From assembly GCA_964413095.1 (NCBI GenBank), contig CAYPRJ010000003.1, positions 1 to 60,172 on the forward strand: a DNA stretch of 60,172 nt, in the 5' to 3' direction. This stretch comes from Candidatus Woesearchaeota archaeon (GTDB lineage: Archaea; Nanobdellota; Nanobdellia; Pacearchaeales; GW2011-AR1). Below are positions 15,076-37,983 of this stretch, one piece after another (positions within the stretch are counted from its first letter, which is position 1; each line of letters begins with the position of its first letter). The position numbers and the translations under genes were made by a program. The notes below the pieces were generated by a model. That model was not told the DNA's origin. It was given only the letters and a program-made list of their open reading frames with translations, and ran no database searches.

Positions 15076-16497
15076 ATGGTAGAAGCAAAAGCAGTTTCTG
15101 AAATAATTGGGGAAATTGTTCCTTATTATAAAAAGAAAGGTGAGCCAGAAGTAGAACACAAAATAGTCTATGATTCCTCTTCAGAACAATTAGAGCCAAT
15201 ATATTTCTTCATTTTAGATTTAATGAATGATTTTGGTTTTGAAACAGAGAAACTTGTTGATAATTTTACATCTTCTCCTGGAAGCGGACACTTCGCTGAA
15301 TTAGGACAAAGAGCAACAATTATGCAACAACAAGGAAGTAAATTATTAGGAGATATAAACACTGTTCTAAGAAGTGTATTAAATATTATTTATGATTTAA
15401 AAGAGTTCAGGATGAGATTGCAACATTATGAAAATTTAGAATCAAAAGATAAAGGTAAAAGTGAATCTGCAAAATTGGCATTAAAACAAGTCTGGATGGA
15501 TAAAGTAGATATTCAGAAAGGAAATTCTGCAATAAAACCAATGGCTATGCAGGGCGGTTTTCAAACTTTAATTGATGCTTTTTTAGCTGTAGATAGTGAA
15601 AAAGATGTCAGTAAGCTTGATTTAAATGAAAGAGTAAAAAGAGTTCTAAGACCAAGAATTATGGAATTTAACACTTGGCTTGAACAATCTAAAAAAGAAC
15701 TTAAAAAAAGATATGAACTTGAAAAAAATTATTTAAGAAGTCAGGTTAATAGCTTGAAATTATATTCTCGTTGGGCAAAACCTTATTTAAAAGCAGCACA
15801 CCAACTTGAAATGAAGGGTTCTGAAAAAAATCCATCTTTAGTTAAAGCATTTAATACAATTCTTTTGGAATTGACATTATTTGGGAAAAATAAAATAGAC
15901 ATAAAAAAACAGGCATTAAACGGAAAACTTCCGGCAGAATTTTCAAAAGAAAGTTTTCAAAAAACATTAAAAAGAAATTATTATGCTTGTGTGTTAGTGG
16001 ACTTTAATTTTAGAGGAATACCTCAGAGAGTTGCACAACAACCACATTATGCATTTGGAGGAAAAACAGAAATAACTTTCAAAGCTTATGCATTAAATGA
16101 CCAAGAATTAGAAAAAATTGAAGAAGAAATTGGAAACTCTGAAATAGAGGATGTTTTAAAATTAATTGAAGGAACAACTACTGAAAGTTTGGAACAACTA
16201 CAAGAAGAGATAAATTTCTTTTTGGAAGAAGATACAAAATCCAAAGAAAAACAAGAAAAACTAAAAGATACTTCAAATCCCTTTTTAGCTTTAATAGGAG
16301 CATATAACAAAGAAAAGAAACCAGAGAAAAAAGAAAAAAAAGAAACAAAACAAAAAAAGAAAGCACAAGAACTCAAATCAGATAATTTTATTGAAAAAGA
16401 ACATATAAGACCATTAACAGCTGAAGAAGCTTCTGATTCAGCATTTAACTTTTTTGATATTTACAAAAAAGCTCACGGCATGCCAAGTTATACATAA
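15076..16497 (+). CDS. Conserved-looking hypothetical protein (473 aa)
   Basis: Long ORF with typical codon use; no recognised family. Confidence 0.75.
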   Translation: MVEAKAVSEIIGEIVPYYKKKGEPEVEHKIVYDSSSEQLEPIYFFILDLMNDFGFETEKLVDNFTSSPGSGHFAELGQRATIMQQQGSKLLGDINTVLRSVLNIIYDLKEFRMRLQHYENLESKDKGKSESAKLALKQVWMDKVDIQKGNSAIKPMAMQGGFQTLIDAFLAVDSEKDVSKLDLNERVKRVLRPRIMEFNTWLEQSKKELKKRYELEKNYLRSQVNSLKLYSRWAKPYLKAAHQLEMKGSEKNPSLVKAFNTILLELTLFGKNKIDIKKQALNGKLPAEFSKESFQKTLKRNYYACVLVDFNFRGIPQRVAQQPHYAFGGKTEITFKAYALNDQELEKIEEEIGNSEIEDVLKLIEGTTTESLEQLQEEINFFLEEDTKSKEKQEKLKDTSNPFLALIGAYNKEKKPEKKEKKETKQKKKAQELKSDNFIEKEHIRPLTAEEASDSAFNFFDIYKKAHGMPSYT

Positions 16498-16628
16498 TAA
16501 CTTGGTGGTTGCAGGAGCCGTGATTTCAAAGAAAAAGGTTATCATTCAAATCCATCTAAGGCAATTAGGGATTTGGGTTGCAGGAGCTGTGAAGAACCCG
16601 CTGGTGGTTCTCAATGCCGAGTTATACA
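16480..16628 (+). other. GC-enriched structured insert between imperfect 15-bp direct repeats
   Basis: ATGCC(A/G)AGTTATACA at 16480-16494 and 16614-16628; two GGTTGCAGGAGCyGTGA motifs; several hairpins. Confidence 0.55.
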
Positions 16629-16638
16629 CAAGAGCATA

Positions 16639-17292
16639 ATGAAAGATAAACAAAAAGAAAATAAAAAACAAAAAAATGATTTTAAGAAAAAGAAGAAAAA
16701 TCAAAAAATAAAGAATAAGAAAAAAACTTCTAAGAATTCTGCAGAAAAAAATTTGGAAAAAGAGTGGAAAAAATTAAAAGAGAAAATTAAAGATAATTTA
16801 ACAAATAAATCTGAAAATAGAAGAGAACAAAAATCAGAATTAGAAGAAGAAATAAAAAAAGAAAGAGAAGTTAAAAAAAATCAGAACCAATTTAATAATT
16901 TTTCTCAATCTTTTAACACAGAAGTCAAAGAAATTCCAACAACAAATCTAAACAAAATTACAAACCAGTTTCAAGAAAGAAATTTAGAGCAAAGTTTTAA
17001 TCCTTTATTTACAAATCAAGAGCAGGAAAATGAACCTTTAAAATACAATATCTCCCAGACAACTCAAAACACAAGAGACAAATATCAGAACAATACAACA
17101 TTAAGACCTTTAAGAGTTCATGAAGAATCAGAAAGAGATTTATTCCTCAATCCAACAGAAAACACTATAATAAATCAACAAGACATTGATACAGACAGAA
17201 TGAATGTCGGATTTATGAATCAAGAAAGAAGATTACCATTTGAACAAGAGGATGAAAGATATAAAGAATATAAATTACGAAAAACAGAATAA
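16639..17292 (+). CDS. Hypothetical low-complexity K/N/Q/E-rich protein
   Basis: ATG at 16639 preferred; the TTG at 16573 lies inside the structured element. Confidence 0.65.
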   Translation: MKDKQKENKKQKNDFKKKKKNQKIKNKKKTSKNSAEKNLEKEWKKLKEKIKDNLTNKSENRREQKSELEEEIKKEREVKKNQNQFNNFSQSFNTEVKEIPTTNLNKITNQFQERNLEQSFNPLFTNQEQENEPLKYNISQTTQNTRDKYQNNTTLRPLRVHEESERDLFLNPTENTIINQQDIDTDRMNVGFMNQERRLPFEQEDERYKEYKLRKTE

Positions 17293-21003: not shown

Positions 21004-21148
21004 TACCATTCCAATCCTTTAAAATCAAATTTGAAATCTATGTTTTTTCCTTAAATTTTCTTTTTTAGATTAATCATACAACACACTACTAAATTAAAAA
21101 TATTTAAAAACCAAATAAACTTAACATAATTATAACGTATGGTTTTCA

Positions 21149-21250
21149 GACTTCCATCAGAGGCAATAAAAGGAAGTCGCTTGAGGGGCGAGTGATTTCG
21201 CGTATCGCCTCAACAAATAGCGAGGTCAGGAGTAAAAACCGTAGGTTTTG
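21149..21250. repeat. Dispersed structured element, copy 1 (copy 2 lies in the tRNA-Asp intron)
   Basis: Colinear blocks GACTTCC, CAGAGGCAAT, AAAAGGAAG, GCGAGTGATTTCGC, AGCGARGTCAGGAGT, AAACC..GGTTT shared with 37813-37938. Confidence 0.85.
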
Positions 21251-21258
21251 AAAAGAGT

Positions 21259-22128
21259 GTGAATATGGCAAAGAAAAAAAGTTCTTCAAATTTAAAAAAG
21301 AAATCTGAGAAAAAATCCAAATCAAAAAAAGAGAAAAAAAATTATCCAACATTAAATATTAAAGATGAATCAGAAATTGCTATGGATTTTGCTATCAAGG
21401 CATATAAAAAATTTGACAAACTTATCAAATCAATAGTTTTATTTGGTTCAAGTGTTAAACAATCTTCTTCTGCAGGTTCAGATATTGATATAGTTATCAT
21501 AATCGATGATGCTTCTGTAAAATGGGATCAGGAGTTAATAACATGGTATAGGAAAGAATTAGATAAGCTTCTAAGAGCTAATCCTTATAAAAAAGATTTA
21601 CATATCAATACAATAAAACTAACTACCTGGTGGGAAGATTTGATAAGGGGTGATCCTGTTGTTATAAATATTATAAGATATGGAGAGCCAATGATTGATA
21701 TGGCAGGATTTTTTGAACCCTTAAAGCATCTTTTAGTTGAAGGAAAAATAAAATCAACACCAGAAGCAATTCATGCTTGTCTTCAAAGAGCTCCTATGCA
21801 TATGGCAAGGAGCAAAGCATCTGAAATGAATTCTGTAGAAGGATTATATTGGGCAATGGTTGATACTGCTCATGCAGCTTTAATTGCTGCAAAAATTCCA
21901 CCAGCTTCTCCAGAACATATTCCTAGAGATTTAAAAGAAACTTTTGTCAATAAAGGAAAACTAAAAATGAAATATGTTCTTTGGTATAGAGATTTATTAT
22001 TATTACATAAAAAAATTGCTCACGGAGAAACCAATGACTTAAAAGGAGTGGAAGTAGATATGTGGCAAGAAAGAACTGAAGATTTTATGGAAACAATGGC
22101 TCAGTTAGTAAAAAACATAGTTGGTTAA
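21259..22128 (+). CDS. Nucleotidyltransferase (Pol-beta/MNT) + HEPN-like fusion
   Basis: LFGSS...SDIDIV; C-terminal YWAM..TAHAAL helical domain. Confidence 0.8.
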   Translation: MNMAKKKSSSNLKKKSEKKSKSKKEKKNYPTLNIKDESEIAMDFAIKAYKKFDKLIKSIVLFGSSVKQSSSAGSDIDIVIIIDDASVKWDQELITWYRKELDKLLRANPYKKDLHINTIKLTTWWEDLIRGDPVVINIIRYGEPMIDMAGFFEPLKHLLVEGKIKSTPEAIHACLQRAPMHMARSKASEMNSVEGLYWAMVDTAHAALIAAKIPPASPEHIPRDLKETFVNKGKLKMKYVLWYRDLLLLHKKIAHGETNDLKGVEVDMWQERTEDFMETMAQLVKNIVG

Positions 22129-32274: not shown

Positions 32275-33648
32275 ATGAAAAAGATATTTGCCTTAATGGT
32301 TTTACTATTAATTATTCCAAATGTTATTGCAATAAACCTAAATGTAGAAAAAACAAGTTCTGATGAAGTTTTAATTCCTGAATTAAATAAACCTGTTGAG
32401 GTGAGTTTGAAAGTAACAAATAATGGAAATACAGATGATTTTATATTTTATACTTTTTTTGGCTCAGGAATGAATCCAACAGAAAGCATTAGGATAAATG
32501 CAGGAGAAACAAAAAATATAGAAGCAGAGATTTATCCAAGACTTGATTTGCAAAGAGGTTTTGTAACATTTAGTTATTTTATACAAGGTGATAAAGGAGA
32601 TCATGAAGAAAGACTGACAATAAAAGTTATAGATTTAGAAGATGCTTTTGAAATAGGAGCAGAAGAATTCAACCTAGAAGAAAATTCTATAAAAGTTTAT
32701 ATAAAAAACAAAGTAAATTTTAATTTCGAAAAAATTGAAGCAGACTTCTCATCACCTTTTTTTGAATTCACTGAAAGTTTTAATTTAGAACCAAATAAAA
32801 TAAAAGAATTTGATATTCAGGTTGATAAAGAAGATTTCAAAAAGTTAATGGCTGGTTTTTACACTTTAGAAGCAGATATTTTTATAGAAGATAAAAATGC
32901 AGAAGTGAATGGAGTTATAGAATTTGTAGAGAAAAATCAATTAACCACAAAGCAAGAAAAAAAAGGATTTATTATTACTACTCAGACAATCAAAAAAATC
33001 AATGAAGGAAATGTTGAAGTCGGCTCTGAAATAAAAATAAAAAAGAATATAATCTCAAGACTTTTCACAACCCTGATTCCTCAACCAGATATTGTTGAGA
33101 GAAAAGGATTAAATGTTTATTACACCTGGAACAAAGAAGTAAAACCAGGAGAAACTTTAGAGATAAAAGCAAGAACTAACTGGTTTTTTCCTTTATTAAT
33201 AGTATTTTTTATTGTGTCAATAATAATCTTAGCAAAACAATATTCAAAAACAAATGTTATATTAAAAAAGAGAATTAATTTTGTGAGGGCAAAAGGAGGA
33301 GAATTTGCATTAAAAGTAACTATAAAAGTTCAGGCGAAAAAATATGTAGAAAGAGTTAGTGTGACAGACAGACTTCCTCCTTTAGTAAAAATCCATGAAA
33401 GATTTGGAACAGAAAAACCCAAAAAAGTAGATGAGCAAAAGAAAAAAATAGAATGGTTTTTTGAAAAATTAGAAACAGGGGAAACTAGAGTTCTTAGTTA
33501 TATAATTTATTCAAAAGTGGGTGTAGTCGGAAAATTTGCATTGCCTTCTGCAACAGCAATATATGAAAGAGACGGACAAATTCAAGAATCAAATTCAAAC
33601 AAGGCTTTTTTTGTAGCAGAACAAAGACAAAAAGGAAAAGAAGAATAA
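32275..33648 (+). CDS. Secreted, membrane-anchored beta-rich hypothetical protein
   Basis: Signal peptide, Ig-like segments, TM at WFFPLLIVFFIVSIIIL. Confidence 0.75.
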   Translation: MKKIFALMVLLLIIPNVIAINLNVEKTSSDEVLIPELNKPVEVSLKVTNNGNTDDFIFYTFFGSGMNPTESIRINAGETKNIEAEIYPRLDLQRGFVTFSYFIQGDKGDHEERLTIKVIDLEDAFEIGAEEFNLEENSIKVYIKNKVNFNFEKIEADFSSPFFEFTESFNLEPNKIKEFDIQVDKEDFKKLMAGFYTLEADIFIEDKNAEVNGVIEFVEKNQLTTKQEKKGFIITTQTIKKINEGNVEVGSEIKIKKNIISRLFTTLIPQPDIVERKGLNVYYTWNKEVKPGETLEIKARTNWFFPLLIVFFIVSIIILAKQYSKTNVILKKRINFVRAKGGEFALKVTIKVQAKKYVERVSVTDRLPPLVKIHERFGTEKPKKVDEQKKKIEWFFEKLETGETRVLSYIIYSKVGVVGKFALPSATAIYERDGQIQESNSNKAFFVAEQRQKGKEE

Positions 33649-33690
33649 TCAAGAAAATCTTTAAAAGCTGTTATTTCTTTTATATTTTAA

Positions 33691-33761
33691 CCCTCCATAG
33701 CTTAGTGGTAGAGCAGTCGGCTGTAGCCCGACGTGTCCCAGTTCGATTCTGGGTGGAGGGA
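33691..33761 (+). tRNA. tRNA-Tyr(GTA), intron-less
   Basis: Archaeal C1-G72 acceptor CCCTCCA/TGGAGGG; GTCGG-CTGTAGC-CCGAC; short variable loop. Confidence 0.95.
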
Positions 33762-33780
33762 TTCAAATGAATGAAGGCAT

Positions 33781-33995
33781 ATATTATTCCCATAATCGAA
33801 CTTTCGATTCCGAGCATTTACACGAGTGTTAATCCATAAAAAAATGAGTGTGGGTGCGAGTTGTGGTAGAGGGATAAATGGAGCTTTATGCCCATACTCC
33901 CAGGATTTAACAGTGTTACCAGTTCGATTACAACGAATTGCTTTGCAATTCGTGTTGCCAAAATTCCACAGGAATTTTTAGCACTGGGAAATATT
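33781..33995 (+). ncRNA. Unassigned structured RNA candidate (four-way junction)
   Basis: Nested helices listed in findings; G-U pairs favour the plus strand. Confidence 0.65.
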
Positions 33996-34018
33996 ATCAA
34001 AAAGAGGAAAAATATCTA

Positions 34019-35161
34019 ATGAAGCTTAAACTAAGTCAAAGACATAAAAAATTATTTACTGCTGTTTCAATAATAACTGGAACTATTGTTGGTGCTGGAT
34101 TTTTAGGAATTCCTTATGTTGCAGCAAAATCTGGTTTTTTTGTTGCTCTTGGATACCTGATTGTTATTGCAGGTTTAAGTTTATTAATTAATCTGTCTTT
34201 TGGAGAAATAATTCTAAGAACAAAAGGAGAACATCATCTTGTAGGATTTGCATATAAATATCTTGGAAAAAAAGGAAAAGATATTCTGTTTATATTATTC
34301 AACATTGCAATAATCTCTGCTTTATTAGCTTATATGATGGGAGTGGGAGAAAGTTTGAGTGTCTTAATTTTCGGAAGTGCAAAATATAAAATTATGATTG
34401 GAGCTTTATTTGGTTTTTTCATGTCTTATATTTTATGGGGAGGAATTTCTTCATTAAGAAAATTCGAGAAAATTGGTGTCCTGGCTATTGCACTAATAGC
34501 TATTTTTATTGCTGTATTCTTTCTTAAAGATATATCTTATTCTAATTTATTAGGATTTAATAAAAAATATATATTCCTGCCTTTCGGGGTGATAATCTTT
34601 TCTTTAATGGAATTTTTTTCTTTCCCAGCTGTTAGAAGAGTTTTGAATAAAAACGAGGATTTAACAAAAAAAGCAATTATTATTGGAACATTAATTCCTG
34701 CAATATTCTATGCTTTCTTTATGTTCATTATTGTGGGTGTTGCAGGCCTAAAAACTCCTGAAGTTTCTACACTAGCTTTCGGACCTTTGTTTATAATCTT
34801 AGGAATTGTGACTATGTTTACTTCATATTTAGGTTTAGGAACATCTTTAGAAAGAAGTTATATGGTTGATTATACAAATAAGAAGAAAAAGGCATGGTTT
34901 AAAGCAGCTATAATACCAATAGCCTTATTTTTATTAATTGGATTTTTTGAATTCTTTTCTTTTACAACTATTCTTTCTATTGGAGGAGTTTTTGCAGGAG
35001 GCATAATTGGAATGATGGTTTTAATTATACATAAAAAGGCAGACACTCAGGGAAATAGAATTCCAGAATACAAAGTTCATTTAAGCAAGGCTGTTATTAT
35101 TTTGATTTCACTTCTATATATTGGAGGAGTGGTAGTTGAAATATTAAAATTTTTTAATTAA
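34019..35161 (+). CDS. Aromatic amino acid permease (TyrP/Mtr-like)
   Basis: GTIVGAGFLGIPYV..KSG, PFGVIIFS, GT.IP..FY, TSYLG; ATG at 34019 with GAGG upstream. Confidence 0.8.
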   Translation: MKLKLSQRHKKLFTAVSIITGTIVGAGFLGIPYVAAKSGFFVALGYLIVIAGLSLLINLSFGEIILRTKGEHHLVGFAYKYLGKKGKDILFILFNIAIISALLAYMMGVGESLSVLIFGSAKYKIMIGALFGFFMSYILWGGISSLRKFEKIGVLAIALIAIFIAVFFLKDISYSNLLGFNKKYIFLPFGVIIFSLMEFFSFPAVRRVLNKNEDLTKKAIIIGTLIPAIFYAFFMFIIVGVAGLKTPEVSTLAFGPLFIILGIVTMFTSYLGLGTSLERSYMVDYTNKKKKAWFKAAIIPIALFLLIGFFEFFSFTTILSIGGVFAGGIIGMMVLIIHKKADTQGNRIPEYKVHLSKAVIILISLLYIGGVVVEILKFFN

Positions 35162-37739: not shown

Positions 37740-37983
37740 CGCCCACGCCGGGAATTGAACCCGGGTTATGTCCGTTCTGCACGAAAGGAGCCATTTACAT
37801 CCTCTTCACTGCGACTTCCCAGAGGCAATTTGAAATCGTCTTTCAGTGCCAAAAAGGAAGGTGTGTGCGAGTGATTTCGCAAACCTATTTTTCGCCCTTT
37901 ATTGTGAGCGAAGTCAGGAGTTAAGGAAACCAAGGTTTCCTTCATGCGACAGGGACATGTCTTAGCCACTGGACCACGTAGGC
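37740..37983 (-). tRNA. tRNA-Asp(GTC) with 172-nt BHB intron (37775-37946)
   Basis: GCCTACG/CGTGGGC-G73; TGTCC-CT-GTC-G|intron|C-GGACA; BHB central helix CUGU/GCAG with two 3-nt bulges. Confidence 0.92.
37813..37938. repeat. Dispersed structured element, copy 2, inside the tRNA-Asp intron
   Basis: Colinear blocks shared with 21149-21250. Confidence 0.85.

Follow-up and report, generated by a model that had tools for sequence, protein, structure and literature searches.

A probable composite of tRNA-Tyr end copies and small hairpin modules between a tRNA-Tyr gene and a permease gene in a Candidatus Woesearchaeota archaeon

The spacer between tRNA-Tyr and the permease gene

We analyzed a 60,172-nt stretch of DNA (the window; NCBI GenBank assembly GCA_964413095.1, contig CAYPRJ010000003.1, positions 1 to 60,172 of the forward strand) from a Candidatus Woesearchaeota archaeon, whose genome (G000) is represented by 770 kb in 51 contigs and is 88% complete. 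The subject of this study is the element at positions 33781-33995 of the window, which lies between a tRNA-Tyr gene and a gene encoding a permease. The tRNA-Tyr(GTA) gene (33691-33761, plus strand) is intact and intron-less, was called by ARAGORN, and matches the Rfam tRNA model with 63.4 bits; a TATA-like sequence (CTTTAAAAGC, 33660-33669) 5' of it is a putative promoter. The downstream gene (34019-35161, plus strand) belongs to the Trp/Tyr permease family (Pfam PF03222, E 1.7e-20) and is a neighbor that lies outside the element. Its ATG at 34019 is 23 nt past 33995, is preceded by a GAGG Shine-Dalgarno-like motif (34003-34006), and is separated from tRNA-Tyr by a spacer of 257 nt. A first-pass annotation, made from the sequence alone, had placed here a ~210-nt RNA containing a four-way junction, and had proposed that it is either an unassigned non-coding RNA or a switchable, T-box-like leader that couples tRNA-Tyr to import of its cognate class of amino acid. 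The two flanking genes are those that the annotation named, and what it observed in the sequence is largely real, so that it is partly confirmed.

The number of 7-mers and 8-mers common to the spacer and tRNA-Tyr, counted on both strands, was reached by none of 2000 dinucleotide shuffles, and the shared 7-mers cover 44 nt of the spacer compared with 5.7 ± 6.4 nt in shuffles. The tRNA-Tyr-like fragments reported by the annotation are therefore genuine, as is the link to tRNA-Tyr: the region consists of copies of the tRNA-Tyr T-arm and 3' end. The source of these copies is the variable loop and T-arm of tRNA-Tyr (GTGTCCCAGTTCGATTCTGGG, 33733-33753, plus strand) together with its 3' end. Past the tRNA trailer (33762-33786), which ends in ATATTA (33781-33786), there is an inverted T-arm copy, TTCCCATAATCGAACT (33787-33802), which matches the reverse complement of the tRNA-Tyr T-arm at 13 of 14 positions (blastn-short), and immediately behind it a direct T-loop copy, TTCGATTC (33803-33810), found by both blastn-short and repeat search. 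Farther downstream, a quasi-palindrome read from the sequence, ATTTACAC-GA-GTGTTAAT (33816-33833), can pair internally or with 33903-33916 and may be the leftover of an older, degenerate module of the kind described below.

The central part of the spacer contains two overlapping, degenerate direct copies of the 3' part of tRNA-Tyr (33846-33881; repeat search and local alignment), in which GAGTGTGGGTG resembles GATTCTGGGTG, and GTGCGAGTTGTGGTAGAGGGATAAATG resembles GTTCGATTCTGGGTGGAGGGATTCAAATG (T-loop, 3' end and trailer). The copy of the 3' end and trailer (33854-33881) gave a local alignment score of 23 against a null of 13.9 ± 2.3, a score reached by 5 of 1000 shuffles. Within these degenerate copies lies GTGGTAGAG, which the annotation had taken for a piece of the D-loop; because it is located inside a degenerate T-loop, 3'-end and trailer copy (33854-33881), it is better read as a decayed copy of the 3' end. 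A second inverted T-arm-like copy, TTATGCCCATACTC (33886-33899; repeat search), matches TTATTCCCATAATC (33784-33797) at 12 of 14 positions. The two halves of the region, 33731-33845 and 33846-34018, align with one another directly, to an extent matched by 1 of 1000 shuffles.

The distal part of the spacer contains the most faithful direct copy, GTGT-TA-CCAGTTCGATT (33913-33929), an 11/11 exact repeat that covers the variable loop, the T-stem 5' strand and the T-loop. It is interrupted by 54 nt and, as read from the sequence, resumes with CTGGG and then AA (33984-33990), the copy of the T-stem 3' strand, with which the distal T-arm is complete if the 54 nt are left out. When the 54 nt are excised, this distal copy (33913-33929 plus CTGGG at 33984-33988) reproduces 20 of the 21 host positions 33733-53. 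CTGGG is followed by AAATATT, and the copy of the acceptor strand present in relatives is absent here. Repeat search also showed that AGTTCGATTA (33921-33930) joined to TGGGAA (33985-33990) is perfectly reverse-complementary (16/16) to the inverted copy TTCCCATAATCGAACT, such that the only interruption in the right half of this inverted repeat is the 54-nt module. ATATTA (33781-33786) recurs at 33991-33996, immediately flanking the inverted repeat on both sides, and resembles a 6-bp target-site duplication; by a rough estimate, a 6-nt repeat would arise by chance in such AT-rich DNA with a frequency of ~1e-3 per position.

The arrangement of these repeats raises the possibility that a single composite resembling a miniature inverted-repeat transposable element (MITE), spanning 33787-33990, was inserted once, with perfect 16-bp terminal inverted repeats that mimic a T-arm, a 6-bp ATATTA target-site duplication, and the 54-nt module nested later in its right end. 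Like a MITE, the block has inverted repeats at both ends and a target-site duplication, the latter being weak evidence in AT-rich DNA. The 16/16 inverted repeat is broken by the module alone, ATATTA abuts both ends, and excision of the block together with one ATATTA leaves a plausible spacer of 47 nt (it is 23 nt in the closest relative with the same synteny). However, the block is present in one copy in the genome and in none of the relatives rather than in multiple copies, its interior copies the 3' end and trailer of the host tRNA and the junction into the left repeat, which would not be expected of an incoming transposon, and an AT-only 6-nt repeat is weak evidence at ~30% GC. We consider a single insertion of this kind unlikely.

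A recurrent 54-nt module at tRNA T-arms

The 54-nt module (33930-33983, plus strand) interrupts the distal copy after its T-loop and before its T-stem 3' strand, and consists of AC, hairpin A (ACGAATTGC-TTT-GCAATTCGT), GTT, hairpin B (GCCAAAATTCC-ACA-GGAATTTTTAGC, that is, GCCAAAATTNC...GNAATTTTTAGC; 33957-33982) and a final A. To describe its relatives, we defined a module family in which AC precedes a hairpin A of variable sequence, 1-3 nt separate this from hairpin B (N-CC-AAAATTNN-loop-NNAATTTT-TAG-N'), and a single purine closes the module; a T-loop copy lies before it and a T-stem 3' strand after it. The sequence at 33930-33983 matches this pattern exactly and has every element of it; at tRNA-Tyr, the distal copy was not found to run on into the cognate acceptor 3' strand.

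The hairpin B pattern GCCAAAATTNCNNNGNAATTTTTAGC has nine exact matches in a collection of species-representative genomes, eight of them in metagenome-assembled genomes (MAGs) of Pacearchaeota, Nanoarchaeota or Woesearchaeota type (DPANN archaea) and one in a MAG labelled Paceibacterota. With up to two mismatches allowed, hairpin B was detected in 26 of the family's 401 genomes (labelled G here), spread over 22 of its 191 genera, in five or fewer copies per genome, while a reversed-pattern control yielded none in the same 401 genomes. A loose regular expression for hairpin-B-like sequences returned only noise in G000, apart from the candidate itself. Among 39 distinct hairpin B sequences, 98.7% of alignment cells pair, 5 of the 10 pairs show compensatory changes, and there are 43 double-change cells compared with 8.1 in shuffles (0 of 500 shuffles). 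The tRNA-sense strand has 10 G.U cells versus 5 unpaired cells, the pair that flanks hairpin B outside the search pattern varies between T:A (six times) and C:G (four times), and one irregularity, a C opposite UA, is invariant. Hairpin A varies in sequence across the family and is constant in its hairpin form.

These modules are associated with tRNA genes. Of 34 distinct instances with flanking sequence, 17 have a tRNA gene on the same strand within 330 nt upstream, at distances of 44-246 nt, and the tRNAs concerned have ten identities (Met, Lys, Thr, Ser, Glu, Trp, Gly, Leu and Pro, plus Tyr here). In 10 of the 17, the 8 nt that start one base past the hairpin recur in the 3' end of that same tRNA. 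The shared order is tRNA, inverted T-loop/T-stem copy, T-loop copy, AC, hairpin A, hairpin B, purine, and then the T-stem 3' strand and acceptor 3' strand; one module, in genome G055, is inverted beside tRNA-Val. The tRNA-Tyr module is 87% identical to a module in G089 and 85% identical to one in G207, which lie behind tRNA-Gly and another tRNA in other genera, and differs from them by a compensatory G:C to A:T change in hairpin A. At the G089 locus (L072, ~1180-1620), five tRNA-Gly(TCC) 3' ends (CCGGCCCGCGCA) alternate with four modules. The modules of this array are of three types, with two of the four identical, and the layout is like that of the repeats and spacers of clustered regularly interspaced short palindromic repeats (CRISPR). 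At 11 of the 17 tRNA-linked loci, including tRNA-Tyr, where it occupies 33975-33979, the first run of five or more T past the tRNA falls in hairpin B. The 54-nt module is not flanked by a target-site duplication.

Copying of tRNA ends is also widespread in this genome and changes rapidly among relatives. Eight tRNA genes of G000 (Leu-TAA, Leu-CAA, Arg-TCT, Ile-GAT, Glu-TTC, Glu-CTC, Lys-CTT and Tyr) have copies of their own 3' parts downstream. Behind those other than Tyr there is, in most cases, an inverted copy of the gene's own T-loop, followed by a structured insert and a second, sometimes third, copy running from the T-loop to the 3' end. Such inserts are ~45-110 nt long in G000 and in the family, with units at times stacked in arrays, and the same pattern is present in relatives behind tRNA-Arg (L033, L035) and tRNA-Val (L010). 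We compared turnover among tRNA-Lys(TTT) genes that are 90-98% identical and belong to one genus: G417 has a Tyr-type module behind this tRNA, G434 and G336 have no such module, G361 has a different insert plus a distal copy of the 3' end, and G436 has tandem units of a third type. Because loci within one genus differ in the presence and type of module, the modules behave as mobile or unstable DNA and not as a conserved RNA gene.

Together, our data indicate that the element at 33781-33995 is likely a lineage-specific composite, built by small non-coding modules that target tRNA T-arms, and not a single RNA gene or riboswitch. The tRNA-Tyr flank contains at least two layers, an older, degenerate unit (~33762-33881) and a younger unit with the intact 54-nt module. 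We envision the modules as mobile DNA that an enzyme would move in trans, with insertion at the junction between T-loop and T-stem. Each insertion would retain an intact tRNA proximally and displace the older copy of the 3' end distally, and repeated insertion followed by decay could have produced the two layers behind tRNA-Tyr. The stretch is probably transcribed as a 3' trailer of tRNA-Tyr up to the run of five T in hairpin B. Archaeal RNA polymerase terminates at oligo-T, and the module may incidentally stop transcription from the tRNA gene; a trailer RNA of these 215 nt may exist.

Several observations weigh against this interpretation. The searches yielded no inserting enzyme: Cas1 was not found in G000, and a Cas1/casposase was rejected for this role; the Y1 transposase (PF01797) was likewise not found in G000 and occurs in only 3 of 12 module-bearing genomes, which are incomplete MAGs; and the two tyrosine recombinases (PF00589) of G000 are encoded on other contigs (C4:31270 and C8:18852), with none between direct repeats. 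The distal copy at tRNA-Tyr ends after CTGGG, whereas those in relatives run on into the acceptor strand. A single MITE-like insertion accounts for the 6-bp ATATTA flanks and the 16-bp inverted repeat no less well than an array does, the covariation in hairpin B shows selection on structure, which could act on an RNA, and one genome alone underlies the reconstructed order of events.

A broader proposal, which we advance tentatively as it seems to us somewhat more apt to fail than to hold, is that Pacearchaeota-type DPANN archaea harbor an undescribed class of miniature, non-coding modules of ~50-110 nt and conserved structure that home to tRNA T-arms and restore the 3' end of the tRNA with each insertion. 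These modules would form CRISPR-like arrays, with the 3' end as repeat and the module as spacer, and would supply an oligo-T terminator; the tRNA-Tyr flank would be a decayed, two-layer array of this type, and hairpin B, with its invariant C opposite UA, would be the recognition site of a recombinase or RNA-processing enzyme.

Fold, RNA families and the functional-RNA alternatives

The helices listed in the first-pass annotation are all present in 33781-33995, amounting to 60 canonical pairs that include 4 G.U pairs. The plus strand folds with a minimum free energy (MFE) of -64.0 kcal/mol (z -4.37; none of 200 shuffles was as good), while the annotated structure as a whole has -53.7 kcal/mol. 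The annotation had stated that the G-U pairs favor the plus strand. This preference disappeared on comparison: the minus strand, with an MFE of -58.2 kcal/mol, has an equal z of -4.40 against its own shuffles, and the mirrored structure costs only ~1 kcal/mol more. Also on the minus strand is a run of seven T (CTCATTTTTTTATGG, 33837-33845), which would be a strong archaeal terminator for an antisense transcript across the element.

Pair probabilities separate the parts of the four-way junction that stand from those that do not. The closing helix TTCCCA/TGGGAA (0.89) and the helix at the base of the long arm, TAATCGAACT/AGTTCGATTA (0.87), which together form a 16-bp outer helix, are robust, as are the first hairpin (hairpin A; 1.00) and the second (hairpin B; 0.94), whereas the interior helices of the long arm, ACAC/GTGT, TGTTAATCC/GGATTTAACA and GAGTGTGGGT/GCCCATACTC, have a probability of only ~0.08 each. 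Three of the four long helices result from pairing between copies of one T-arm sequence that lie in direct and in inverted orientation. More specifically, the appearance of a junction arises because the inverted T-arm copy TTCCCATAATCGAACT, which supplies one strand of the closing helix and of the arm base, pairs with the split distal T-arm copy; the tip of the arm forms because the degenerate direct copy, at 33846-33855, pairs with the second inverted copy TTATGCCCATACTC; and the two hairpins are the module.

As a unit, the 210-nt structure appears to be unique to this locus. A 241-nt query containing it found only itself in G000 and gave no blastn homologue in any of 60 relatives, each of another genus. 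The element is absent behind tRNA-Tyr genes that are 97%, 93% and 82% identical (G061, G123 and G011, respectively), where unrelated sequence or an oligo-T run directly follows the tRNA, and it is absent 5' of permease orthologues in 29 family genomes (41-66% amino-acid identity) and on four further contigs (70-75%). Close homologues of the permease were not found in metagenome and genome contig collections, the nearest proteins being 70-75% identical. On one Logan contig (L053, 1-260), tRNA-Tyr lies directly 5' of a permease gene whose product is 70% identical; it stops 23 nt short of the ATG, and the spacer element is absent. That tRNA-Tyr has an intron of ~165 nt at the canonical position. 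A paralogous permease in G000 (44% identity, C6:32814-34127) is preceded by tRNA-Arg(TCG), an arrangement shared by five relatives (L031-L033, L035 and L041), and permease genes may ride on tRNA promoters.

Searches against RNA families agreed with the annotation in assigning the element to no known family: a scan of 33000-34600 up to E=10 matched tRNA-Tyr only, and at the Rfam gathering threshold the whole window contains five tRNAs and nothing else. RNase P RNA, signal recognition particle RNA and 5S rRNA were considered and rejected, as none matched at the element and each was located elsewhere in the genome (C15, 140 bits; C7, 77.7 bits; and C4, 58.7 bits, respectively). A T-box leader (RF00230) had no match in the same scan, and no specifier or T-box sequence was identified. 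A hidden or second tRNA was also rejected: there was no RF00005 match at E<=10, and ARAGORN with introns allowed reported tRNA-Tyr only, giving implausible calls at relaxed thresholds.

A different interpretation of the locus is that it encodes a functional structured RNA, either a tRNA-Tyr trailer or permease leader that switches between pairing with the T-arm and pairing with the distal copy and so tunes the permease, or an independent non-coding RNA. The strong fold (z -4.4), the two alternative partners available to the inverted T-arm copy, the covariation of hairpin B, and the recurrence in L053 (70% amino-acid identity) of the adjacency between tRNA-Tyr and permease, which makes co-transcription plausible, are consistent with such a function. 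Yet in L053 only 23 nt separate tRNA-Tyr from the ATG and the element is absent, the other permease orthologues lack both the tRNA and the element, and homologous modules lie behind many unrelated tRNAs in permease-free neighborhoods: no permease homologue was found in 38 module loci comprising 151 kb. In addition, there is no match to the T-box or any other Rfam family, the long arm is thermodynamically unfavored, and the fold is strand-symmetric. We regard a functional RNA of this kind, which comparison among genomes does not support, as highly improbable. What survives of the annotated non-coding RNA are the two hairpins, which belong to a conserved, covarying family, while the whole 210-nt unit has no homologue. 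The T-box-like, permease-leader reading is refuted at the level of sequence because homologues of the conserved part are unlinked to permeases and sit behind varied tRNAs, an outcome that the annotation itself had named as refuting it. The bacterial T-box riboswitch (RF00230) has a single likeness to the element, namely an RNA beside an amino-acid-related gene with possible tRNA contact; unlike the case of a T-box, the element and the permease are not conserved together, and homologues of the element are unlinked to amino-acid genes.

The near-complete distal T-arm suggests yet another origin, in which a second tRNA-Tyr decayed here, either as a pseudogene left by tandem duplication or as the 3' part of an ancestral intron-bearing gene in which the 54 nt were a T-loop intron that the splicing endonuclease once excised. 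Without the module, the distal copy does agree with the host tRNA at 20 of the 21 positions that span the variable loop through the T-stem 3' strand, tRNAs of DPANN archaea are rich in introns, and tRNA-Tyr of L053 has the ~165-nt intron noted above. However, acceptor strands, a D-arm and an anticodon arm could not be assembled by hand, and no tRNA model matches. The bulge-helix-bulge motif, taken as a 4-bp helix with a 3-nt bulge on either side, one at each junction, could not be drawn at TTCGATT/AC and AGCA/CTGGG with the T-stem as outer helix (by inspection; no dedicated search was made). The module is inverted at tRNA-Val in G055, and the L053 intron has no similarity to the tRNA-Tyr spacer above that of shuffles. 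We judge it quite improbable that the element derives from a second tRNA-Tyr.

Comparison with known elements and related inserts in this genome

Our favored reading, a composite of modules that target T-arms, bears resemblance to several known systems without coinciding with any of them. As with the attL/attR duplications of tyrosine-integrase elements (SSV and pNOB8 types; T-loop sublocation), an intact tRNA is followed downstream by a direct copy that runs from the T-loop to the 3' end, and repeated events give arrays. Unlike those elements, the inserts here are only ~45-110 nt and non-coding, the repeats enclose no integrase, the architecture includes an inverted T-loop copy, and the module lies inside the distal T-arm copy. 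The same module is moreover found behind tRNAs with different 3' ends, and because of this it cannot carry a fixed attP.

The modules are similar to MITEs, to palindrome-associated elements of the IS200/IS605 family and to repetitive extragenic palindromic (REP) sequences in being short, non-coding and hairpin-rich, with compensatory changes and an invariant irregularity, in having a copy number that varies per genome and a patchy distribution across genera, and in that the 54-nt module lacks a target-site duplication. They differ from these elements in that the Y1 transposase was found in only 3 of 12 module-bearing genomes and not in G000, that G000 has a single copy, and that the modules are tightly tied to copies of tRNA T-arms.

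Archaeal non-canonical tRNA introns are bulge-helix-bulge introns and have been proposed to be transposable in Thermoproteales. Like them, the module is a structured insert at a precise position, between T-loop and T-stem, and related sequences are present at different tRNAs and in a canonical tRNA-Asp intron. In contrast to these introns, the module lies downstream of an intact, intron-less tRNA, so that splicing is not needed, and it occurs in both orientations.

A literature search did not recover a description of such modules, and the nearest published concept is the disruption of tRNA genes by integration of mobile elements, modeled in Caldiarchaeum (PMC3293823). In that model, as in the data presented here, tRNA fragments and intron-like inserts arise fast and differ between close relatives. 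The element joins a recurrent, fast-turnover and poorly described class of mini-insertions that copy tRNA ends, which to our knowledge has not been described. Its recognition removes a tempting false lead, since a T-box-like archaeal switch between tRNA-Tyr and aromatic amino-acid import would be remarkable if true and is unsupported by the sequence. The class bears on how archaeal tRNA genes gain introns, fragments and split forms, on how the tiny genomes of symbionts tolerate mobile DNA at essential single-copy genes, and on tRNA annotation in DPANN genomes. Hairpin B provides a searchable motif with strong covariation that can be used to find the enzyme that recognizes it.

Types of insert recur at other places in this genome: at 16490-16640 and 21146-21255 of the window, in the intron of tRNA-Asp (antisense to the tRNA), and in a tandem array at the start of contig C17. 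At 16490-16640, just past the end of a gene and in tRNA-free surroundings, there are two ~45-nt units of a second type ('type 2') and a fragment like a tRNA 3' end (TCAAATCCATCTAAGGCAAT); together they are flanked by the direct repeat GCCRAGTTATACA, as in an insertion with target duplication. A free-standing module resembling a first type ('type 1') lies at 21146-21255, just 5' of the start of a gene. It contains the hairpin GACTTCC...GGAAGTC with a GAGGCA loop, ends in AAAACC-GTA-GGTTTT, and had no Rfam match in a scan of 21050-21350. A module of this type occurs again, antisense to the tRNA, in the 172-nt intron of tRNA-Asp(GTC) (37813-37938 of the window).

Many of the tRNA genes predicted by ARAGORN in G000 have long introns. 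Across the whole genome, ARAGORN did not find tRNA-Ala, tRNA-Pro, tRNA-Phe(GAA), tRNA-Thr(TGT/GGT) or tRNA-Gln(TTG), and found a single tRNA-Met; some of the genes not found may be hidden by non-canonical inserts or may lie within the absent 12% of the genome. On other contigs, three 74-nt units at C17:1-200 each contain GTGCAGGCTCAT, the 3' end of tRNA-Ile(GAT), and repeated 69-nt units composed of the tRNA-Lys(CTT) 3' end and a module span an assembly gap at C20:5959-6260. Finally, at C9:2390-2430, the leader ACAGGCTCAT that abuts the 5' end of tRNA-Ile(GAT) copies that gene's own acceptor 3' strand and discriminator, forming a third, partial copy of the 3' end.

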